A stretch of 64,000 bases of DNA from Bacteroidia bacterium (GCA_016218155.1 JACREQ010000111.1:31035-95034), one strand, 5' to 3'. Positions 8,562 to 61,119 are shown, counted from the first letter of the stretch. Notes: generated from the sequence alone by a model not told the origin. Numbers and translations: made by a program.

Positions 8562-10001
8562 ATGAGAACCATTTGTTTTTATTTTCAGGTACACCAACCT
8601 TTCAGACTTCGCCGGTATCGCTTTTTCGATATTGGTAACGATCACCATTACTACGATGACTTTGCAAACCGTACCATTATGCGAAAAGTGGCAGATAAAT
8701 GTTATTTGCCAACAAATCAACTTATGTATGATCTGATTCAGGAATACGGAAACAGATTTCGTATTAGTTATTCCATTTCCGGAACAGCTCTTGACCAATT
8801 CGAAATGTACTGTCCTGAAGTTATTGAAAGTTTTAAAAGACTCGTTTCTACAGGTTGTGTTGAAATACTTGGAGAAACATATTCACATAGCCTTTCTGCT
8901 CTTCGTAACAAAGAAGAATTTGTAAGTCAGGTAACATTACACAGTAAAAAAATAGAAAGACTGTTTGGAGTAAAACCAACTTCATTTCGTAACACCGAGC
9001 TTATATACAGCGATGGAATTGGCGAAATGGCTGCCGAAATGGGTTTCAAGGCAATTTTAACAGAAGGTGCAAAACATGTTTTAGGTTGGAAATCACCTAA
9101 CTTTTTATATTGTAATGCCATTAATCCAAAACTAAAAGTTCTTTTAAAGAATTTCAGAATGAGTGATGATATTGCATTCCGCTTTTCAAATAAAGGCTGG
9201 AGTGAATGGCCCCTTACAACAGAGAAATATGTTAAATGGCTTAATGAAATAGACCCTAAACAGGAAATGGTTAATCTGTTTATGGATTACGAGACTTTTG
9301 GCGAACATCAATGGGCAGAGACAGGAATTTTTGAATTTATGAGACATTTGCCAAAGCAGGTTTTCTCAAATTCAAACTTTGAATTTATGACCCCTTCTGA
9401 AGTTGCAGATCATTTTGACCCTGTTTCAGCAATTCACGTTCCATACCCTATCTCTTGGGCTGATGAAGAAAGAGATTTAACTGCATGGCTAGGTAATGAA
9501 CTACAAGATGATGCTTTCGACAATCTTTATAATCTTGCAGACAGAATGAGGCTTGTAGATGATCCGGATCTTCTTCGTGATTGGCGATACCTGCAAACAA
9601 GTGACCATTTTTATTACCAGTGTACAAAGTGGTTTAGCGATGGTGACGTACATAAATATTTTAATCCTTACGATACACCTTACGAAGCCTTTATTAATTA
9701 CATGAATATTTTAAGTGATTTCGAAATTCGCTTAAACAAAATATCTGAACCAGCAGTTGTTTCTCCATTTGTTGAAAGAAAGAAAGTTGTTTCAATATTT
9801 AAACCTTCTACAATTATAAGACCTGGAACAGAACTGTTAATGCCAGAGATGGTTCAGGACCCAAAAAGAATTGCAAAAAAGAAAACAGTTAAAAAAGCTG
9901 CTGTTTCAAAAAAAGTAAAAGTAAAAACAAAAGTAAAAGCTGAAGCTAAACCAAAGTCTGCAACGAAGTCTAAAACTAAAAAGGCGGTTTCAAAAAAATA
10001 A
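8562..10001 (+). CDS. glycoside hydrolase family 57 (alpha-amylase-like) with a Lys-rich C-terminal tail
   Basis: 479 aa. GH57 conserved regions are visible: FQVHQPFR, VEILGETYSHS, FRNTELIY, MDYETFGEH. The last ~48 aa are K/A/V/S-rich. Confidence 0.85.
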   Translation: MRTICFYFQVHQPFRLRRYRFFDIGNDHHYYDDFANRTIMRKVADKCYLPTNQLMYDLIQEYGNRFRISYSISGTALDQFEMYCPEVIESFKRLVSTGCVEILGETYSHSLSALRNKEEFVSQVTLHSKKIERLFGVKPTSFRNTELIYSDGIGEMAAEMGFKAILTEGAKHVLGWKSPNFLYCNAINPKLKVLLKNFRMSDDIAFRFSNKGWSEWPLTTEKYVKWLNEIDPKQEMVNLFMDYETFGEHQWAETGIFEFMRHLPKQVFSNSNFEFMTPSEVADHFDPVSAIHVPYPISWADEERDLTAWLGNELQDDAFDNLYNLADRMRLVDDPDLLRDWRYLQTSDHFYYQCTKWFSDGDVHKYFNPYDTPYEAFINYMNILSDFEIRLNKISEPAVVSPFVERKKVVSIFKPSTIIRPGTELLMPEMVQDPKRIAKKKTVKKAAVSKKVKVKTKVKAEAKPKSATKSKTKKAVSKK

Positions 10002-10020
10002 ACTTAACTATATTATTATG

Positions 10021-10051
10021 CAGTCATGTCTTTCGGCATGACTGTTTTTTT
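10021..10051 (+). terminator. rho-independent terminator after the GH57 gene
   Basis: Stem cagtcatg/catgactg (8 bp, extendable), followed by T7. Confidence 0.7.
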
Positions 10052-10162
10052 ATATTAATAATATGTCTCTACAGAAATAAATAATGTTTAAGGCAGGATT
10101 ACAAATCTGAAAGAGCATGGGACAACAATTTCATAGTGTTTTATAAAATAATTTATATAGGA

Positions 10163-10190
10163 ATAGGGGTAAAATAATTCTCGATTGTCA
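10163..10190 (+). promoter_or_regulatory. candidate ECF-type promoter (ATAGGGG-N15-(A)TTGTC) upstream of the TonB-dependent receptor
   Basis: Both blocks recur with identical 15-nt spacing at 13208-13235, upstream of fecR. GGGG is rare in this AT-rich DNA. Confidence 0.4.
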
Positions 10191-10213
10191 TTTATATGAA
10201 AAGCAAAATATAA

Positions 10214-12577
10214 ATGGGTAATACAGAGAATATGAAAACAATTTCAAAAACATTAATTGCATTTATTTTAATAATATGTATTAATAATTTAATTGCACAA
10301 ACCATTACACAAACAATAAAAGGAAGAATTGTTGATAAAGAATCTCAAACACCTTTACCTGGCGCTACAATTGTAATCTTAAATACCGAGCCATTACTAG
10401 GTGGAATTACAAATGAGAATGGAAACTTTGTAATTAAAAATGTTCCGATAGGCAGATATAATATTAAATCTGTTTATCTCGGTTATGAACCGTCTATAGC
10501 CAGTGAAGTACTTGTTGGATCAGGTAAAGAAATTGTTATAAATTTTGAGTTAAGTGAAATTCTAAATAATTTAAATGAAGTTGTTGTAAAATCTAATAAA
10601 GGTGAAACCATGAATTCAATGGCTTCTGTAAGCGCACGACAACTTAGCGTAGAAGAAGCCAGCAGATATGCCGGTGGCTTTGATGATCCTGCCAGATTAG
10701 CTTCGTCATTTGCAGGCGTGAGCAGTAGCTTGGGAAATAATGGAATTGTTATCAGAGGAAATGCACCAAAAGGTTTATTGTGGCGAATGGAAGGAATTGA
10801 AATTTCTAATCCAACTCATTTTGCAAATATTCAGACTATAGGTGCAGGTGCAATAACAGCTTTAAGTAGTCAGATGTTAGCTAACTCCGATTTTTACACA
10901 GGTGCATTTCCTGCAGAATATGGTAATGCAACTTCTGGTGTTTTTGATATAAAATTAAAAACAGGCAACAATGATAAAAGGGAAAACACCGTGCAAATAG
11001 GCTTAATCGGAATTGACATCTCTTCTGAAGGTCCTTTTATAAAAGGTAAAAAAGCATCTTATATTTTTAATTACAGGTATTCTACATTAAATCTATTATC
11101 ACCCATTTTACCTAAAGAAATGGGAAAGTTAAAATATCAGGACCTATGTTTTAAGATGAATTTCCCAACCAAAAGTTTTGGAACATTTTCATTATGGGGT
11201 ATTGGCTATTTGGACTATCAGGCAAGAGAAGCATTAAAAGATTCGATGAAATGGGAATCTGATATGGATAAACAACAATTTAATATTGATCTTTTAATGA
11301 CAGCTGCAGGACTTAATAACAGAATTATTCTCGGAGAGAAAACATACTTAAATACTACAATTGCAATAACAGGAACAAGCCTTGGCATGAATCAGGATAG
11401 CTATACTGAAACAATGAATATGCTACCAACTAATAAAATAAATTATTTAACGCAAAAGCAAACAATATCAAGCTTTATTAACCATAAATTTAATGCTAAA
11501 CTTACAAATAAATCAGGCATTATTATTAACAAATTACAGTACAATTTTAATATTCAAAGCATTGATAACAATGAAACTGAATTGTCAACAAAAGTTAAAG
11601 AAAACGGAAAAAGTTATCAATTTCAAGCATATTCACAATCCAAGTATAATTTTACACAAAACCTAAATGTTGTTTTTGGCTTACACAGTCAGTTTTTTGC
11701 ATTAAACAAACATTATTCTTTTGAGCCAAGAACAAGTATTAGCTGGAATTTAGATGCTCGTCATACTTTAAGTTTATCTTATGGTTTACATAGCCAGATG
11801 GAAATGCTAAACTTTTATTTAGTACAACAAAGTACACAATACGGAATTAATGAGCCAAATAATAAACTTGATTTTTCAAAGGCACATCATTTTGTACTAT
11901 CATATGATTTCAAAATAAATGAGTTTTCGCACATAAAATTTGAACCATATTTTCAATATTTATTTAACGTACCTGTTATTCCCGATTCATATTACTCATT
12001 ACAGAATATGGAAGACGGTTTGTATTTTAACGACTCACTGGTAAACAAAGGTAAAGGACAAAACATTGGTTTAGATATAACATATGAAAGATTCTTAAAT
12101 CATGGCTATTATTACCTTGCAACAGCTTCAATATTCGACTCCAAATATATTGGTGGTGATGGCATAAAGCGAAACTCACGATTTAACAGAAATTATGTGT
12201 TTAATGTTTTAGGAGGAAAAGAGTGGAAAACCGGAAAGAATAAAAATAATATATTCAGCATTAATGGGAAATTCTGTTTAATGGGTGGAGAATGGTTAAA
12301 TCCACTAAATATTGAAGCTACTTATGATTCAAAATATATAGTTGAAGATGTTTCTAATGCATTTACAGAAAGAAAAAAGCCAGCTCAGGTACTTTCGTTT
12401 TCATTTAGCTATAGAATTAACAAGGCAAAACACGCAAGTATATGGTCGTTTAGCTACATGAATGTGTTAGGATATGCAGAATTCAGTGGTTATTACTTTG
12501 ATAAAATGAGTAACTCGATAAAAAAAGAAGTTGATAAATTAGTTATGCCAAGTATTAGTTATAAATTAGAATTTTAA
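10214..12577 (+). CDS. TonB-dependent receptor (CarboxypepD_reg-like N-domain, plug, beta-barrel; no STN domain)
   Basis: 787 aa. A signal peptide is followed by IKGRIVDKESQTPLPGATIVI (carboxypeptidase-regulatory-like), then plug-like IVIRGNAPKGLLWRMEGIEISNP, and a terminal ...SYKLEF barrel end. The real start may be the Met at 10232 (MKTISK...). Confidence 0.85.
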   Translation: MGNTENMKTISKTLIAFILIICINNLIAQTITQTIKGRIVDKESQTPLPGATIVILNTEPLLGGITNENGNFVIKNVPIGRYNIKSVYLGYEPSIASEVLVGSGKEIVINFELSEILNNLNEVVVKSNKGETMNSMASVSARQLSVEEASRYAGGFDDPARLASSFAGVSSSLGNNGIVIRGNAPKGLLWRMEGIEISNPTHFANIQTIGAGAITALSSQMLANSDFYTGAFPAEYGNATSGVFDIKLKTGNNDKRENTVQIGLIGIDISSEGPFIKGKKASYIFNYRYSTLNLLSPILPKEMGKLKYQDLCFKMNFPTKSFGTFSLWGIGYLDYQAREALKDSMKWESDMDKQQFNIDLLMTAAGLNNRIILGEKTYLNTTIAITGTSLGMNQDSYTETMNMLPTNKINYLTQKQTISSFINHKFNAKLTNKSGIIINKLQYNFNIQSIDNNETELSTKVKENGKSYQFQAYSQSKYNFTQNLNVVFGLHSQFFALNKHYSFEPRTSISWNLDARHTLSLSYGLHSQMEMLNFYLVQQSTQYGINEPNNKLDFSKAHHFVLSYDFKINEFSHIKFEPYFQYLFNVPVIPDSYYSLQNMEDGLYFNDSLVNKGKGQNIGLDITYERFLNHGYYYLATASIFDSKYIGGDGIKRNSRFNRNYVFNVLGGKEWKTGKNKNNIFSINGKFCLMGGEWLNPLNIEATYDSKYIVEDVSNAFTERKKPAQVLSFSFSYRINKAKHASIWSFSYMNVLGYAEFSGYYFDKMSNSIKKEVDKLVMPSISYKLEF

Positions 12578-12585
12578 AAAAATCA

Positions 12586-12593
12586 TACCTTTG
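12586..12593 (+). promoter_or_regulatory. candidate housekeeping -7 box (TACCTTTG) for the ECF sigma gene
   Basis: TAnnTTTG match 15 nt upstream of the TTG start at 12609. Confidence 0.3.
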
Positions 12594-12608
12594 TAATTCA
12601 TATTTTTT

Positions 12609-13208
12609 TTGATTTTGCAAATTACTGAAAACATTCTGATTGAGAAAATTAAGAATGGCGATAAAACTGCTTTTGAAAGTATTTTCAAATCGTATTATAA
12701 CCAATTGTGCTCCTATGCAAATAAATTCGTAAAAGATATTGATAATTGTGAGGAAATAGTTCAGGAAATCTTTTTCCAAATATGGCAAAATAAAAATAAA
12801 ATAGTAATTCAAACATCATTAAAATCATACCTTTTTAGATCAGTTCATAATAGTTGTTTAAATTATATTAAACATAAAAACATCGAGCAAAAGCATATAG
12901 AAAGCACTCTTTTTGAAAACAAAAATAGTTCGCAAGACTTTATAGATATTTTAGAATCAAATGAATTGCATGATAAAATAAGAATAACAATATATAAATT
13001 ACCACCAGAAAGAAAAAAAATATTTTTAATGATACGTTTTGAAAATTTAAAATATATTGAAGTTGCTGAAAAACTGAACATTTCGATAAAAACTGTAGAA
13101 AATCAAATGGGTAGTGCTTTAAAATTTATGCGTAATGAACTTAAAGAATACTTGCCAATGCTAATTCTACTTTCAATAAATTTTATTTATAATTTTTTAA
13201 AATCTTAA
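12609..13208 (+). CDS. ECF-subfamily RNA polymerase sigma-70 factor
   Basis: 199 aa. The region 2 block is GDKTAFESIF...EEIVQEIFFQIW. Region 4 carries an HTH (YIEVAEKLNISIKTVENQMGSALKFM). The start codon is TTG, and there is no in-frame ATG nearby. Confidence 0.85.
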   Translation: MILQITENILIEKIKNGDKTAFESIFKSYYNQLCSYANKFVKDIDNCEEIVQEIFFQIWQNKNKIVIQTSLKSYLFRSVHNSCLNYIKHKNIEQKHIESTLFENKNSSQDFIDILESNELHDKIRITIYKLPPERKKIFLMIRFENLKYIEVAEKLNISIKTVENQMGSALKFMRNELKEYLPMLILLSINFIYNFLKS

Positions 13209-13235
13209 TAGGGGAAAATGATTCAATAATTGTCT
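13208..13235 (+). promoter_or_regulatory. candidate ECF-type promoter (ATAGGGG-N15-ATTGTC) upstream of fecR
   Basis: Second copy of the two-block motif seen at 10163-10190. It lies in the 35-nt sigma-fecR spacer. Confidence 0.4.
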
Positions 13236-13243
13236 TATATAAA

Positions 13244-14251
13244 ATGAACAGTTTACCAGAAAATATTACACACGAACTCATTATTTCTTACTTAAAAAAA
13301 GAAACTACAAATGAGGAATCACTAGTAATAGAAGTGTGGCTTAATGCTTCTGTTGAAAACAAAGATTATTTTAATGATTTAAAAAATCTCTGGAGTGAAA
13401 CCGGAAAATTAAACCCTGCTCCAATTGAGGTTGACGTTGATACTGCATGGCAGAAATTATCCTCAAGAATTGAAAGCAAAGAAAACATTGCTATTTCTAG
13501 TAATAATCCATTTATTAAAACTTTATTAAAAGTAGCAGCAATAATTATCCCTGCTATAGCAATTATTTCATTTTATTTATTTTCAAATAAAGAATTAAAA
13601 CAAATTGATATTGTAACAACTAACAATAATATCCAAAAACAACTTTCTGATGGTAGCATAATTAATATAAATTCACATTCAAAATTAACTTACCCGGAGA
13701 AATTTGATAGCAAGCTGCGTGAAGTGAACCTTAGCGGTGAAGCCTTTTTTGAAATTTCACCAAACAAAGAAAAACCATTTATTATTCATTATAAAGACGC
13801 CAACGTAAAAGTTGTTGGAACATCGTTCAATGTAAATACCAACAATAATAAAGTAGAAGTGTTTGTTAAAACAGGAAAGGTTTTATTGTTTTGTGTTTCT
13901 TCAAACTCAAACGACACAAATTTAGTTACTTTAGTTGCCGGGGACAATGGAATCCTTGACCTAACAACAAAAAAAGCTTATAAAGAAGACTCTCCAAATG
14001 AAAATGATATTTTCTGGTATACAAAAACATTATTTTTTGACAAAGCTGAATTATCAGAGGTTATTGAAATATTACAAAAAAGCTATAATGTAAATATTGT
14101 ATTAAAAAATAAAGAGTTAAATAAACTTCGTTTATCTACAACTTTTAAAGATCAAAACATAGAATCTATACTTGATATTATCTCTGCTTCATTTAATTTA
14201 AAAGTTTCAAAAAATAATTCCACATACGAGATTGATGGAGAAAGTAATTAA
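13244..14251 (+). CDS. FecR-family anti-sigma factor
   Basis: 335 aa. It has an N-terminal cytoplasmic part, a single TM segment (AAIIIPAIAIISFYLF), the FecR block LSGEAFFEISPNKEKPFIIH...VKVVGTSFNV, and a C-terminal DUF4974-like part. Confidence 0.85.
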   Translation: MNSLPENITHELIISYLKKETTNEESLVIEVWLNASVENKDYFNDLKNLWSETGKLNPAPIEVDVDTAWQKLSSRIESKENIAISSNNPFIKTLLKVAAIIIPAIAIISFYLFSNKELKQIDIVTTNNNIQKQLSDGSIININSHSKLTYPEKFDSKLREVNLSGEAFFEISPNKEKPFIIHYKDANVKVVGTSFNVNTNNNKVEVFVKTGKVLLFCVSSNSNDTNLVTLVAGDNGILDLTTKKAYKEDSPNENDIFWYTKTLFFDKAELSEVIEILQKSYNVNIVLKNKELNKLRLSTTFKDQNIESILDIISASFNLKVSKNNSTYEIDGESN

Positions 14252-15854
14252 ACATTTTATTGTTTTTGGCATTTATATATTGATACTTTTTTTTGTGTCG
14301 GAAACTATTTTTGCTCAAACAAATCCATTAGATAAAAAGATTAGCCTTATTATCAAAAATGAAACTGTCGAGAAAACACTTAATAACATTAGTAAAAACA
14401 CTGGCATAATTTTTTCATACAATTCGGATATTATTCCACTAGATTCAATTATATCAATTACTTTAAAAAATAAAACCATTTCAAAATCTTTAAATAGCCT
14501 TTTAGGGAATAATTATTTTTTTAAAAGTTTAGGAAACCATATTATAATATTAAAAAAAAACAACTTAAGAAATTTTACAACGTGCACAATAAATGGTTTT
14601 ATTATAAATTCACTTACCGGTGACAAAATTCCGAATGCAACAATTTATGATTTAAATAAAAACTTTTCTGCATTAAGCGATTCCAATGGCTACTACAAAA
14701 TCTCTTTTCCCCCTGAAACCGAAACAATCGGATTAGGGTTCTGTAAAAATAATTTTAACGATACAGTAATCTTTATTAAATCAACTCTCGCTTTAACCAT
14801 AAATGTATCGCTAAAACCAGATTTAAGGGAGAATAATAACATTGAAAAACTTCAGCCAAAATTACCTTCCACAATTTTTATATTAAATATTAACGATTAT
14901 CGTATTGTAAAACGATTTGTAAAAAACGAAATGCTTTTACACGCTAAAAATTTAAATATCTACGAAAAAAGATTCGGACAATTTTCTATCCTTCCGTATA
15001 TTGGAACTAATAGAAGAATAAGTGGTGCAATAGTAAATCGTATTTCTTTTAATGCAATTGCAGGCTATTCAAACGGAGTAAATGGTGTTGAATTAGGAAC
15101 GTTGTTAAATATTTCAAAAAATGATGTTAAAGGATTTCAGATTTCCGGATTTGGAAATATTACAGGAGGAAATACTAATGGAGTTCAAATGGCGGGTGTA
15201 TTCAACCGCAACATAGGAAATGTCGGTGGTATTCAATTCTCCTGTTTTAGTAACATTATTCTAGATACACTTAAAGGAGTTCAGATAGGCTCTGTGAATT
15301 TTGTAAAAATAAATAAAGGGTTTCAATTTGGAATTATTAATATTGCAGACAGTTCCTCGGGTGTTTCCATCGGCTTTATGACTGTTGTTAAGAAGGGTTA
15401 TTATAATCTAAGTGTCTTTACAGATGAACTTTTAATGCCAAATATTGCTTTCAGAATTGGAACACATAAGTTTTATAATATCTGGGGGCTTTCAGCAAGT
15501 AAAGAAATGTGGGGCTTAACATATGGTTTCGGGTTTTATAGAAAACCAGAAAAGAAGTTTAGTTTAAATTATGATTTTAGCCTTACTCAAATGAGTTATA
15601 AAAAAGCTTTTGAGATTCAATTCTGCATGAAAACAAAGCTTCAGGCTGATTTAAATATAAGAGTTAATAAAAAACTTGACATGTTTGCAGGTATCTCCTA
15701 TAATATATTTGCATCAGACAAAATAATTGATTTAGAATTACAAAATCATATTACAAATATTACCAATTCTTATATTTCTACAACAACATTTAAAAGTGTA
15801 AGGTTGCAACACTGGCCAGGAATCTCATTGGGATTAAAATACCGTTTAAGCTAG
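14235..15854 (+). CDS. STN-domain plus CarboxypepD_reg-like domain protein with a repeat region and beta-rich C-terminus (not a full TonB-dependent receptor)
   Basis: About 539 aa. A signal/anchor is followed by an STN-like block (ISLIIKNETVEKTLNNISKNTGIIFSYNSD...ITLKNKTISKSLNSLL). Next comes TINGFIINSLTGDKIPNATIYD (CarboxypepD_reg-like), then about 8 V-x-G-x-Q-x-(A/S)-G-x-x-N repeats. It ends WPGISLGLKYRLS. I chose the ATG at 14235 over the TTG at 14232. The gene overlaps the fecR stop. Confidence 0.7.
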   Translation: MEKVIKHFIVFGIYILILFFVSETIFAQTNPLDKKISLIIKNETVEKTLNNISKNTGIIFSYNSDIIPLDSIISITLKNKTISKSLNSLLGNNYFFKSLGNHIIILKKNNLRNFTTCTINGFIINSLTGDKIPNATIYDLNKNFSALSDSNGYYKISFPPETETIGLGFCKNNFNDTVIFIKSTLALTINVSLKPDLRENNNIEKLQPKLPSTIFILNINDYRIVKRFVKNEMLLHAKNLNIYEKRFGQFSILPYIGTNRRISGAIVNRISFNAIAGYSNGVNGVELGTLLNISKNDVKGFQISGFGNITGGNTNGVQMAGVFNRNIGNVGGIQFSCFSNIILDTLKGVQIGSVNFVKINKGFQFGIINIADSSSGVSIGFMTVVKKGYYNLSVFTDELLMPNIAFRIGTHKFYNIWGLSASKEMWGLTYGFGFYRKPEKKFSLNYDFSLTQMSYKKAFEIQFCMKTKLQADLNIRVNKKLDMFAGISYNIFASDKIIDLELQNHITNITNSYISTTTFKSVRLQHWPGISLGLKYRLS

Positions 15855-15861
15855 CCGGAAA

Positions 15862-15891
15862 ATAAAAAAGTCATGCCTTGCGACATGACTT
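15862..15891 (-). terminator. terminator between convergent genes (strong for infB, weaker for the + strand gene)
   Basis: Stem agtcatg/catgact. On the minus strand it is followed by TTTTTTATTTT. Confidence 0.65.
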
Positions 15892-15911
15892 AATATATTT
15901 ATTGTAATTTG

Positions 15912-33790: not shown

Positions 33791-36499
33791 ATGAAAAAGC
33801 AATTTTACTCAACTAACAAATTTATTGTCTCAATATTTATGACAATAATTATAATCGTTCCCCTATTTATAAAGGCACAAACAACAACTGTTTTCTCAGA
33901 TAATTTTAATACCTCAATGGGTACTGGCTATACAACCTCACAAGGCACTATTGGTTCAAGTACAAGTTGGTTAATGAAAACAGCTTCCAGTTCATTTGAA
34001 GCAAAAATAGATGGAGGAATTTTAAATTTAAAAACGTCTGGAACAGGTTCTGGTGCAATTTACGCATATACAAACACAAGTTCGTTTTCTGCACCATATA
34101 CTACACAACTTAATTCTAATATTGGTGTTGTAACCTGGACATTTAATATGAGACAAATTAGAACTGATCCAAGCGGAATGTCGTCTGGTTCATACGGAGC
34201 TGCAGTAATATTGGCCTCCTCCACTTCAAATGTTCTTTCATCAACAGGTTCTTCGGGAGGTATAGGTTATGCGGTTTATTTCGGAACAAGTGGTTCTACT
34301 GATCCAATTTATTTAGCCCGATACTCAAATGGCATTCGAAGCGGAACAATTACACCAATAATAACATCTAATACATCAGGTTTAACAGATTTTGGTGCAG
34401 ATTATTTAAGTGTAAAAGTTACTTATAATCCATCTTCAAATAGCTGGGAGCTTTTTCTAAGAAACGATGGTAGTACTGCATTTTCCGATCCTTCTTCAGG
34501 CACATTAATATCTCAGGGAACTGCAACTAATAACACATATACAGGAACTAGCCTGGGTTTTATGGGTGCTGTATGGAACGGAAGTTCAACAGCAAACCAG
34601 ACTGCATTTTTTGACAACTTTAAAGTAACTGTTAAAAAATTAGACCAAACTATTTCCTTTGAAGCATTATCAGATAAAACATATGGTGACCCTGCTTTTA
34701 ACTTAACGGCAACTGGAGGTGCATCCGGAAATCCTGTTACTTTCTCAAGTTCAAATTCTTCAGTTGCAACTTGTAGTGGAACAAATGGTTCAACAGTAAC
34801 AATTGTTGGGGTTGGTTCTACTTCTATTACTGCATCGCAAACCGGAGACGCAAATTATAATGCTGCTTTACCTGTTACACAAAATTTAACTGTAAATTCT
34901 GCTCTTTACACAGTAACTTTTAATGTTACAGATGGAATAAATCCTGTTCCTGGTGCTGTTGTTTCATTTAATAGTCTTACCCAGCTAACAAATAGTATGG
35001 GAACAACTGTTTTTACAAATATAATAACTGGTAACAATCAAGCATATTCCATTTCAAAAAACGGATATAACACAATTAACAGCTCCTTAAATGTAGCATA
35101 TCAGGATATTGTTATTAACAACACTTTTGGAAGCCAAACCGCAACAAATCTTGTTGTTATTGGAACACCAACTGCAAATACTGCAACACTTGGCTGGAGT
35201 GGAAATGGAGCAACAAATTATCAGATATTATATTATATTAACGGTTCTACAAATTATTTTCTACAGTCAACAACAGCAAGTCCGTTCACAATACAGGCAC
35301 TTGAACCTAACACAATATACAATTGCAGAATTAGAAGTCTAATAGGTGGAATATACAGTTCATATTCTCCTATTGTAAGTTTTGTAACATCTAGCGGCAC
35401 CTCAATTCTTGCGACAAATTTAGCAGTTCAAGGAACACCTACAGTCAATTCTGTTACGTTAATCTGGAATGGAAGCGGAGCAACCAATTATCAGATTCAA
35501 TATAATCCTACAGGAACTTCAGAATATCATATTTACACTGCTAGTTCAAGCCCAGTAACAATTACAGGTCTAACACAAAACACTACCTATGACTGCAGAA
35601 TAAGAACTTATTCGGGTGGTATGTACACATCTTATTCTCAAGCGATCTCTTTTACAACACCTAATTACCTTTCTGTAACTGCAACAAATCTAGCAGTTCA
35701 AAGTATTGGTGCAAATTCTGCAACACTAACATGGACAGGATCTGGTGCAACGTATTACCAAATTCAATACTTTATTAATGGCTCTACCGAGTATTTCTTT
35801 CAAAATTCATCAACAGGACCATTTACTTTACAAGCTCTGCAACCAAATACAACCTATAATTGCAGAATTAGAACATATAATGGAGGTTCATTTACTTCAT
35901 ACTCTTCTATAGTAAGTTTTACAACCTCTAACGGAAGTTCTGTTCTTGCTACTAATTTATCAGTTCAGGGAATACCAACTGCAACTACTGCAACGCTTTT
36001 GTGGAATGGAAGTGGAGCTACAAGCTATCAGATTCAGTATTATGTTACAGGTACAACAAACTACAAATTTCAAAGCTCTACTTCAAGTCCTGTTACATTA
36101 ACAGGTTTATTACCTAACACAAATTATGATTGCAGAATAAGAACTTATTCCGGTGGCATTTATACATCATATTCGCCTGTTACTACTTTTACTACTGCTT
36201 CGTTAGCTAAATATATAGCAGAGTTAGAATCAATTTCAAAAGATCCTATTTCAGAAGCTGTGATTTATCCTAATCCCGCTATTGACTTTTATAATTTAGA
36301 TTTCTATTCTGAAACTGAAGGAACAGTTAGTTTATCAATATATAGTATTGATGGCAAACTTTATGAAAGTAGGATAATTGAAACTTCTTTGGGTTTAAAT
36401 CACTTTGAGCTTAAAACTCCTGATATTTCAACGGGAATTTACTATATAATGTTAAATAAAGGTGATTTTACCAGTAAATTAAAACTAATTAAACAATAA
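33791..36499 (+). CDS. T9SS-secreted surface protein (lectin/LamG-like head, Ig-like domain, CarboxypepD-like domain, 4 FN3-like repeats, CTD)
   Basis: 902 aa with a signal peptide. The S/T/G-rich head ends ...TAFFDNFKVTV (concanavalin-like feel). An Ig-like block follows (ISFEALSDKTYGDPAFNLTATGG...ITASQTGDANYNAA). After YTVTFNVTDGINPVPGAVVSF come 4 repeats, ending in the CTD YPNPAIDFYNLDF...GIYYIMLN...KLIKQ. Confidence 0.8.
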   Translation: MKKQFYSTNKFIVSIFMTIIIIVPLFIKAQTTTVFSDNFNTSMGTGYTTSQGTIGSSTSWLMKTASSSFEAKIDGGILNLKTSGTGSGAIYAYTNTSSFSAPYTTQLNSNIGVVTWTFNMRQIRTDPSGMSSGSYGAAVILASSTSNVLSSTGSSGGIGYAVYFGTSGSTDPIYLARYSNGIRSGTITPIITSNTSGLTDFGADYLSVKVTYNPSSNSWELFLRNDGSTAFSDPSSGTLISQGTATNNTYTGTSLGFMGAVWNGSSTANQTAFFDNFKVTVKKLDQTISFEALSDKTYGDPAFNLTATGGASGNPVTFSSSNSSVATCSGTNGSTVTIVGVGSTSITASQTGDANYNAALPVTQNLTVNSALYTVTFNVTDGINPVPGAVVSFNSLTQLTNSMGTTVFTNIITGNNQAYSISKNGYNTINSSLNVAYQDIVINNTFGSQTATNLVVIGTPTANTATLGWSGNGATNYQILYYINGSTNYFLQSTTASPFTIQALEPNTIYNCRIRSLIGGIYSSYSPIVSFVTSSGTSILATNLAVQGTPTVNSVTLIWNGSGATNYQIQYNPTGTSEYHIYTASSSPVTITGLTQNTTYDCRIRTYSGGMYTSYSQAISFTTPNYLSVTATNLAVQSIGANSATLTWTGSGATYYQIQYFINGSTEYFFQNSSTGPFTLQALQPNTTYNCRIRTYNGGSFTSYSSIVSFTTSNGSSVLATNLSVQGIPTATTATLLWNGSGATSYQIQYYVTGTTNYKFQSSTSSPVTLTGLLPNTNYDCRIRTYSGGIYTSYSPVTTFTTASLAKYIAELESISKDPISEAVIYPNPAIDFYNLDFYSETEGTVSLSIYSIDGKLYESRIIETSLGLNHFELKTPDISTGIYYIMLNKGDFTSKLKLIKQ
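35138..36199 (+). repeat. 4 tandem ~89-aa FN3-like repeats (coding)
   Basis: Same unit family as in the two upstream genes. Confidence 0.8.
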
Positions 36500-60019: not shown

Positions 60020-61119
60020 TTATTTATTTTTAAAATACTAATTATTTTTTCTGCAGCATTACCATCCCCATATAAATTTACACTTAATGGAGGTGGTAAT
60101 TTTTCAATAACATTAACTGTTGTTAAGATATTTTTCTTTGAACAATTTATAGAGTAAATATTAGGGGTTAAAATTCTACCTTTTTGTCTGTCACCAATAT
60201 TAATAACATATTTTGGAAAATATGAGGCTTCAACAAAACCGCTTGATGTGTTTCCTAATAAAAAACTACAATATTTCATGCAAGATAAATAACCCTTCAT
60301 CCCAAATGACTCAATAAGAATTATTTTATTTTTGTTTAATGCAAATTCTTCTATTTTATTTCTGACCATTAAACCCATTGTATCAGAATTTGGCATTGTT
60401 ATAACAATTTGGTATTTCTCCATTAATACCTCTATAGAAGCTAATAATTCAGAAATATAAATTTCATTTTTTTCTAATGAAACGGTTTCCGGATGAAATG
60501 TTGTTAGTATAGTTGGTTTATTTAAATCAATATTAAATTGCTTTTTAAAATCATCAATATTATATAATTCAACATTTTTTAAATTATCAATACTAAGAGC
60601 TCCAACATTAAACACATTTTGGTGCTTATCAGTAATCTCTAAAGCTCTTTTTTTATACACTTCTGTAGAAACAAAGATAAAATCAGACATTAATGAAATA
60701 CTATGTCTGTATGAATTATCTATTGCACCTAATGTAGTCTCTCCACCATATAAATGTACAAATTTTACATTAAAAGGAGATCCAGCAACAACAGCAGCAA
60801 ACATTTCATATCTATCCCCTATAGCAAAAATTATATCAAATTTATTATTACTCCAAAAATCTGCAAACACTTTAATTGTTTCGCCAATTGAAGAAGAAAT
60901 TTCTAAAGGAGAATCACCTGCTGCAGTAGTAACGATTTGATGATTTACCTTAAAGTTATTGCTTAAAATTTCACTTATTGTTTTACCATGAACATCTGAT
61001 AAATGAGTACCAAAAGCAATTATCTCTGATTGAAAAAAATTATCAGCAAATATCTTTTTTAGTAATGGCAAATAAATACCAAAATCAGCTCTAGAACTTG
61101 TAAGTATACCTACTTTCAT
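60016..61119 (-). CDS. neuC: hydrolysing NDP-N-acetylhexosamine 2-epimerase (NeuC/LegG family)
   Basis: 367 aa. The N-terminus MKVGILTSSRADFGIYLPLLKKI and the block GDRYEMFAA are typical of NeuC. Confidence 0.85.
   Translation of the reverse strand: MKVGILTSSRADFGIYLPLLKKIFADNFFQSEIIAFGTHLSDVHGKTISEILSNNFKVNHQIVTTAAGDSPLEISSSIGETIKVFADFWSNNKFDIIFAIGDRYEMFAAVVAGSPFNVKFVHLYGGETTLGAIDNSYRHSISLMSDFIFVSTEVYKKRALEITDKHQNVFNVGALSIDNLKNVELYNIDDFKKQFNIDLNKPTILTTFHPETVSLEKNEIYISELLASIEVLMEKYQIVITMPNSDTMGLMVRNKIEEFALNKNKIILIESFGMKGYLSCMKYCSFLLGNTSSGFVEASYFPKYVINIGDRQKGRILTPNIYSINCSKKNILTTVNVIEKLPPPLSVNLYGDGNAAEKIISILKINK

Follow-up and report, generated by a model that had tools for sequence, protein, structure and literature searches.

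The DNA analysed here is a 64,000-nt window from a Bacteroidia bacterium (GCA_016218155.1, JACREQ010000111.1:31035-95034), and all coordinates given below for genes and sites of the window are positions within it. Between 10214 and 15854, open reading frame (ORF) calls place four genes on the + strand, encoding in this order a TonB-dependent transporter (TBDT) of 787 aa, an extracytoplasmic function (ECF) sigma factor, a FecR-type anti-sigma factor and a 540-aa protein here termed P4. We interpret these genes, with a probability of about 0.7, as a trans-envelope signalling module of the FecI/FecR kind, in which the outer-membrane signalling partner is P4 and not a TonB-dependent transducer. 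The system would work like FecIRA or SusC-type signalling, but the carrier of the STN domain would be a protein other than the TonB-dependent transducer. P4 itself is a mosaic, with a head (STN, N-terminal extension (NTE) and the position of a TonB box) homologous to the N-termini of SusC-like and other TBDT transducers, and a body made of a solenoid and a small barrel. A first-pass annotation of the sequence had proposed a dedicated STN-bearing component partnering FecR, and this proposal is supported by the size of the P4 family, the independent fold of P4, the order sigma-fecR-P4 in 19 of 19 related loci and a promoter motif shared with the receptor gene.

The STN-less transporter, the sigma/FecR pair and P4

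The 787-aa protein (10214-12577, +) was characterised by Pfam, AlphaFold2 (AF2) and Foldseek. Its AF2 model (predicted local distance difference test score, pLDDT, 83; predicted template-modelling score, pTM, 0.82; 40 homologues) has a plug inside a large barrel and resembles FpvA, FoxA, PqqU, FptA, FhuA and BtuB in Foldseek (E 5e-25 to 1e-21, template-modelling (TM) scores 0.6-0.7). A signal peptide (aa 1-28) leads directly into the beta-sandwich of an NTE/CarbopepD_reg domain (aa 32-113), followed by a TonB box (NLNEVVVKS, aa 119-128) in a disordered stretch (120-130), the plug (about 141-250) and the barrel (about 257-787), with ...YKLEF at the C-terminus. Pfam recognised CarbopepD_reg_2 at 35-125 (E 1.4e-17) and, weakly, Plug at 157-243 (E 0.013), returned no match to a barrel family and detected no STN at E≤0.1, in agreement with the first-pass annotation, which had described this receptor as lacking an STN domain. 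Judging from the predicted structure, we conclude that it is a true TBDT that lacks an STN domain. Its family (>7,900 matches; NCBI name 'TonB-dependent receptor') consists mostly of STN-less proteins of about 780 aa; a minority of 886-909 aa have an N-terminal STN, and one such STN-fused member, P0179, is encoded behind sigma and FecR genes, which is the canonical arrangement. This genome contains two copies only of the 787-type subfamily.

The 199-aa protein encoded behind the transporter (12609-13208, +) is a Bacteroides-type ECF sigma factor (TIGR02985, E 2e-50; Sigma70_r2/r4_2 in Pfam), and the 335-aa protein (13244-14251, +) matches FecR (E 2e-17) and FecR_C (E 1e-14) in Pfam. The latter has a cytoplasmic N-terminus, a transmembrane segment at aa 94-113, the FecR domain at 124-213 and the STN-like FecR_C domain at 263-328. 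Within the FecR domain lies a Gly192-Thr193 motif, and the self-cleavage of FoxR reportedly maps to a Gly-Thr site near this position. In the genome, which is 100% complete by marker genes, we found one FecR-family gene and one clear FecR_C domain. Genome searches turned up no STN-bearing TBDT, and the STN proteins besides P4 were only two 636-aa secretins (STN, Secretin_N and Secretin). With a single FecR gene and the other STN domains confined to secretins, P4 is thus the sole STN partner available. The two secretin genes (G000:C44:3753-5663 and G000:C113:47-1957) have near-identical domain coordinates and one of them lies <50 nt from a contig end; they may be two real copies or a repeat produced by the assembly.

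The gene for P4 (14232-15854, +), delimited by Pfam, AF2, Foldseek and its homologue family, starts inside the end of fecR. Its start codon, TTG at 14232 or, more likely, ATG at 14235, gives an overlap with the fecR stop (14249-14251) of 17-20 nt, and overlap or abutment of the two genes is also found in most relatives. The claim that the gene overlapping fecR encodes STN and CarboxypepD_reg domains was borne out by Pfam and by the AF2 folds. The AF2 model of P4 (pLDDT 88, pTM 0.69; 58 homologues) begins with a signal-peptide helix (aa 2-25) and the STN domain (14334-14555, +; aa 35-108), which Pfam detects with E 2.6e-6 and whose two beta-alpha-beta units at 36-108 correspond to the fold described for STN; many P4 homologues bear precomputed PF07660 matches. 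The NTE/CarbopepD_reg-like domain that follows (14583-14813, +; aa 118-194) is a beta-sandwich with a CarbopepD_reg_2 match at 120-197 of 26.8 bits, slightly under the Pfam cut-off, and the best Foldseek match of P4 is the NTE of the SusC protein BT3090 (9hfj; E 2.7e-4, TMt 0.80).

Beyond the NTE, a disordered linker (14820-14879, +; aa 197-216, pLDDT<50 at 201-216) occupies the place of the TonB box of TBDTs, and two short helices (aa 224-240 in the AF2 model) lead to a beta-solenoid (14964-15389, +; aa 245-386) built of G-x-Q-x-x-G-x-x-N repeats with short regular strands (pLDDT 93-97). In the family alignment, the solenoid repeats contain invariant G/Q/N columns. The solenoid is followed by a small beta-barrel (15399-15851, +; aa 390-540), for which the model predicts about 8 long strands and which probably holds P4 in the outer membrane. 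In Foldseek, the best structural matches of this C-terminal part (~390-540) were the small 8-stranded barrels NspA, OmpX, Ail, OmpW, PagL and the OmpA N-domain; these resemblances are weak, with E values of 1e-3 to 2e-2, sequence similarity is absent, and none of these proteins has a solenoid or an STN/NTE head. For the solenoid, an LA_2272 repeat and a weak match to VC2662 were obtained. Neither a plug nor a 22-strand barrel was present in the AF2 model or indicated by Foldseek, as had been argued before for a protein of 540 aa; solenoid and barrel take their place. Pfam contains no family for the solenoid-barrel half, and P4 as a single sequence found no match among solved structures in a sequence search.

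The P4 family and its gene neighbourhood

A word-seeded search identified, among word-sharing candidates, 312 P4 homologues of 535-690 aa, several of them named 'STN and carboxypeptidase regulatory-like domain-containing protein' by NCBI. When 1.84 billion representatives (50% clustering) were searched exhaustively with a profile, 3,641 P4-family matches were obtained at E≤1e-30, and every one of the best 150 of these 3,641 representatives was full-length (542-790 aa). Full-length members were present in at least 13 of 301 sampled Bacteroidota genomes.

These numbers bear directly on whether the 540-aa ORF could be the remaining 5' part of a decayed transducer gene, either SusC-like or of another TBDT. 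The N-terminal 200 aa of P4 are homologous to transducer N-termini, and the STN and NTE scores lie slightly under the Pfam cut-offs, both of which would fit a pseudogene. However, hundreds to thousands of full-length homologues (535-790 aa) have the same architecture, P4 contains no internal stops, its C-terminal fold is confident, self-contained and unlike a plug or a 22-strand barrel, and stand-alone paralogs of this C-terminal half exist. Moreover, no SusC-like remainder follows the gene, as the first-pass annotation had noted, since a terminator-like hairpin (15868-15891) and the convergent infB are located directly downstream. We therefore regard the fragment reading as refuted by family size, predicted fold and intact frame, with a negligible residual probability.

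The homology of the head extends over the whole region in front of the solenoid-barrel body. In many genomes, P4 profile positions 7-210 (STN, then NTE) align collinearly to the N-terminal part of ORFs of 860-1250 aa, which are called SusC-like or TBDT on the basis of their length. In STN-containing SusC proteins, the NTE was stated to precede the STN 'in all cases' (PMC7782687); the order STN then NTE at aa 35-194 of P4 and in the collinear ORFs conflicts with this statement. The P4 profile also aligns with the TBDT 9gbc_A through the NTE and the TonB box, the consensus 'ekLdkLevke' standing opposite 'ELNEVVVS'. When the count was restricted to alignment columns after the NTE (the conserved 'DTxII' strand lies within the NTE), a canonical-like D-[EST]-hydrophobic-hydrophobic-V box was found in 16 of 58 aligned relatives compared to 3.6 expected from shuffling, with IDLDEVLVYN, ISMDTVVISS and FLLDTIVVSP as examples.

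The C-terminal 300 aa of P4, on the other hand, do not derive from a TBDT; they fall into another outer-membrane family, of which paralogs exist as stand-alone proteins. Genes of 375-411 aa adjoining P4 genes encode a signal peptide followed by solenoid and barrel, and these paralogs have no TonB box. Solenoid-barrel genes of 360-530 aa that lack a sigma/FecR pair are present in 47 of the 49 genomes from one family and are scattered through others. A TBDT-like head combined with a C-terminal half that occurs independently indicates that in P4 the head of a transducer has been joined to a member of another outer-membrane protein family. The earlier description of the module as 'split' is thus only partly adequate: the ~215 N-terminal aa are indeed TBDT-homologous and include a relic of the TonB box, but the C-terminal 300 aa come from another outer-membrane family.

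Two further observations concern the diversity of these proteins. In the family f29, where they are nearly universal (47 of 49 genomes), stand-alone solenoid-barrel genes (loci L052, L053, L054 and L059) encode 406-530 aa and have no STN, NTE, sigma or FecR. A PagL-like barrel gene (lipid A deacylase family) lies one to two genes away in L052 and L053, both of which also have a bPH_2 gene, and L052 has cyclophilin and MsrB genes nearby; in the neighbours scanned at these two loci, the PagL-like gene was the only functional clue. Secondly, L047:9185-11329 (genome G259) encodes a 714-aa P4 variant with an extra small beta-barrel-like domain after the usual C-terminus, ending in ...FNLRFAYRFNL.

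We compared the surroundings of P4 in 19 loci (the window, L001-L004, L040-L051, L060 and L061; P4 identity 28-91%), which were chosen from the best matches and are not phylogenetically independent. Genes for sigma and FecR are positioned immediately upstream of P4 and on the same strand in all 19. A 787-type TBDT (phmmer E≤1e-156) adjoins the module in eight of them, and a plain solenoid-barrel paralog adjoins P4 in nine. Both are adjacent in two loci and neither is within reach in four (one at a contig end), among which L061 has a TBDT homologue recorded, apparently on the same contig, beyond the 7 kb examined. While the TBDT gene lies upstream of the sigma gene in the window, it is downstream of P4 in L060 (70% identical), L002, L004, L042, L048, L050 and L051, indicating that the linkage outlasted rearrangement.

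This persistent linkage would be in line with P4 being a pure adaptor without sensing of its own, which relays the ligand or TonB state of the 787-aa TBDT to FecR via the NTEs or the solenoid, so that the two proteins together form a split transducer. The TBDT is in the same putative regulon as P4 and has remained linked despite changes in gene order, proteins of its family with a fused STN occur behind sigma-FecR pairs, and an NTE is present on both P4 and the 787-aa protein. However, no 787-type TBDT is adjacent in 11 of 19 loci, and a solenoid-barrel paralog is found instead in nine. The STN-fused TBDT relatives use another sigma factor and have no copy of the promoter motif described below, and the body of P4 represents an independent, widespread family that also exists without sigma/FecR, as in the 47 of 49 genomes mentioned above. 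We therefore consider a pure adaptor role improbable and favour P4 as the signalling partner of FecR.

The module forms a compact unit (10020-15891) bounded by two terminator-like hairpins. The left one (10020-10045, +; 11-bp stem, then a T-run) ends an upstream cluster of glycogen-metabolism genes (GDE, GT4/GT5, GH57), and the right one, at 15868-15891, is bidirectional and separates P4 from the convergent infB, with nusA also in the downstream flank. No SusD-like gene was found in the module, whose four ORFs are all accounted for, or in these flanks (glycogen genes, infB/nusA). The G+C content of the module is 0.25-0.30 (10000-15900) compared to 0.35-0.38 in the flanks, and the L060 module has other surroundings (mnmE upstream, a PBP-like gene downstream) and another gene order, which suggests that the module moves or gets rearranged as a unit.

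Promoter motif and candidate regulon

Phylogenetic footprinting across the distant related loci established the motif ATAGGGGTA-N13-TTGTC. The window contains two ECF-type copies, motif A (aATAGGGGTAaaataattctcgaTTGTCat, 10163-10190, +) 24 nt before the transporter ATG and motif B (aATAGGGGaaaatgattcaataaTTGTCtt, 13208-13235, +) 9 nt before the fecR ATG. Across the related loci, the motif is located ahead of the sigma gene in 11 (four near-matches included), ahead of fecR in the five loci of the window's clade (the window, L060, L061, L001 and L002), ahead of the TBDT in five of eight (the window, L060, L004, L042 and L050) and ahead of the solenoid-barrel paralog in nine of nine. Among the three TBDT genes without the motif, two lie ≤25 nt from the preceding gene, and the TBDT of L048 is 705 nt away.

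In the 4.78-Mb genome, TAGGGG-N15-TTGTC occurs at exactly two sites, 10164-10189 and 13209-13234, both in the module, and the second TBDT paralog of this genome has no ATAGGGGTA-N13-TTGTC site. When the spacing was changed to N14 or N16, the sole other matches genome-wide were at 33841-33865 (-) and 60162-60188 (+), inside oppositely oriented ORFs; a reversed-pattern control likewise gave two matches, and those of the N14/N16 motif are probably due to chance. A relaxed promoter pattern was not commoner than its reversed control and hence cannot define regulons in GC-richer genomes, and extra regulon candidates were taken from exact-spacing full-motif matches only. One such match (L040:9016-9041) precedes the gene of a 142-aa lipoprotein (L040:8556-8984, -), PepSY-like by eye, which directly follows P4 in genome G043; another precedes an unlinked 315-aa lipoprotein gene in G175 (L098, G175:C1:425925). 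L004 has a DUF2807 gene behind its TBDT gene. The two lipoproteins and the DUF2807 gene are possible additional members of the regulon.

The sigma gene starts 31 nt after the TBDT with no terminator in between, and TACCTTTG (12587-12594, +), located 15 nt before the sigma gene, matches TAnnTTTG, the consensus of the -7 element of Bacteroidota housekeeping promoters, and is a candidate basal promoter. The sigma gene could thus be transcribed at a basal level as well as from motif A, and the sigma factor itself would drive the TBDT and fecR-P4 from the conserved motif.

The motif also served in judging a recent fission of an STN-fused TBDT as the origin of the module. This candidate was rejected, as the sigma factor at the locus of the fused relative (L005) is more distant (8e-28) and ATAGGGGTA...TTGTC is absent there.

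Proposed mechanism and relation to known systems

The STN of a transducer binds the periplasmic domain of a FecR-type protein in the PupR:PupB pair (PMC7186176), and transducers reportedly protect the anti-sigma factor from proteolysis before induction (PMC11637429). By analogy, we infer a series of steps in which the P4 STN would dock on the STN-like FecR_C domain and the juxtamembrane part of FecR, as the PupB STN does on PupR. In the resting state, this contact would stabilise FecR, which would hold the sigma factor. A cue, arising either in the solenoid-barrel body through a change of its state or from the activity of the STN-less transporter under the same control, would shift the contact between P4 and FecR, whereupon FecR would be processed and the sigma factor released. 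From the ATAGGGGTA-N13-TTGTC promoters, the latter would then transcribe fecR-P4 as well as the TBDT gene, with probable read-through from the TBDT gene into that of sigma, and the outcome would be a positive loop together with transporter induction. Since, in many relatives, the regulon appears to include the plain solenoid-barrel protein, P4 may be regarded as the signalling-competent version of this family, much as FecA is among non-signalling TBDTs.

A TonB box directly after the NTE, as retained in some clades, raises the question of whether TonB acts on P4 itself. The P4 family could represent a TonB-coupled outer-membrane signalling device without transport, in which TonB pulls the solenoid on its 8-stranded barrel and movement of the STN switches FecR. 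This reading concerns the clades that keep a canonical box, and even there we regard it as unlikely. As judged from the sequences, TonB coupling as such is plausible where the box is intact and doubtful in the clade of the window, where the corresponding segment is degenerate and contains a Pro.

The same degenerate relic would suit a P4 that acts constitutively as a stabiliser, or as a negative regulator, and whose STN does no more than shield FecR from proteolysis and tether it to the outer membrane; the inducing cue would enter by another route, such as envelope stress that affects FecR directly. STN domains are known to stabilise FecR-type periplasmic domains (PMC7186176; PMC11637429), and the translational coupling of fecR and P4 suggests stoichiometric production. 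On the other hand, the solenoid-barrel body is highly conserved, including the invariant G/Q/N repeat columns, and the plain paralogs appear to be co-regulated, indicating that the body of P4 does more than anchor the protein. A purely stabilising role is thus quite unlikely.

Several points nevertheless weigh against our preferred reading of P4 as the outer-membrane signalling partner of FecR. The STN match of P4 (35-68) has 27.6 bits (E 2.6e-6), which is 0.8 bits under the Pfam cut-off of 28.4 bits, and the segment at the TonB-box position in the window's clade, NNIEKLQPKL in P4, has lost the canonical pattern. A TBDT is adjacent in just eight of 19 loci, so P4 cannot strictly depend on a neighbouring transporter. 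Furthermore, the contact between the P4 STN and FecR is proposed by analogy, the promoter role of the motif is deduced from its conservation, and the predicted position of the solenoid, facing the periplasm, follows from the even number of strands in the modelled barrel.

The proteobacterial systems FecI-FecR-FecA, PupI-PupR-PupB and FoxI-FoxR-FoxA have in common with the module an ECF sigma factor and a single-pass FecR whose C-terminal domain is STN-like. They likewise have an STN at the N-terminus of an outer-membrane protein, and a TBDT in the regulon, which in the present case is a predicted one. In these systems the STN is on the transporter, whereas here the transporter is without STN and the domain is found on P4 together with an NTE, a solenoid and an approximately 8-stranded barrel. 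With Bacteroides SusC-like transducers, P4 and its partners share the phylum-specific succession of STN, NTE and TonB-box position, a TIGR02985 sigma factor and FecR_C (DUF4974). In contrast to these transducers, P4 has no SusD partner, plug or large barrel, and the module lies outside a polysaccharide utilisation locus and has its own conserved promoter motif. The order of solenoid and barrel in P4 is similar to that of passenger and 12-strand barrel in type Va autotransporters; the P4 barrel has about 8 predicted strands, and an STN/NTE head acting in the periplasm in front of the solenoid argues against export.

We found no paper on the P4 family or its architecture in the literature, and the architecture is not mentioned in the main text of the ECF reclassification paper. 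The first-pass annotation knew of no characterised example, which needs qualification. VreA of the PUMA3 system of Pseudomonas aeruginosa is an STN protein without a TBDT barrel; it has a size of 23 kDa, is mostly soluble and periplasmic, and combines the STN with a TolA/TonB-like C-terminal domain (PMC2729926). The VreA-VreI-VreR system thus also has an STN-bearing 'receptor' that is not a TBDT and whose gene adjoins a sigma/anti-sigma pair. The architecture of VreA is nevertheless different: P4 has an NTE, a solenoid and a membrane barrel, and phylum and gene order differ as well (vreA precedes vreI).

According to the usual teaching, cell-surface signalling belongs to TonB-dependent transducers, in which the importer of the ligand also reports its presence. 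With the reading preferred here, a large Bacteroidota family would have its reporting head moved to an unrelated small-barrel protein, while FecR, the ECF sigma factor and the transporter in the regulon were kept. If this is true, the STN/FecR relay is a portable module, and thousands of proteins now called 'STN and carboxypeptidase regulatory-like domain-containing' or hypothetical would obtain a function. Bacteroidota genetics would also gain a well-defined ECF promoter with its regulon (ATAGGGGTA-N13-TTGTC), and the role of the NTE, which is here found apart from a transporter, could be studied in a simple system. Should the less likely TonB-coupled reading be true, TonB-dependent signalling would be uncoupled from transport, and the solenoid-barrel proteins would constitute a new family of outer-membrane sensors or effectors.

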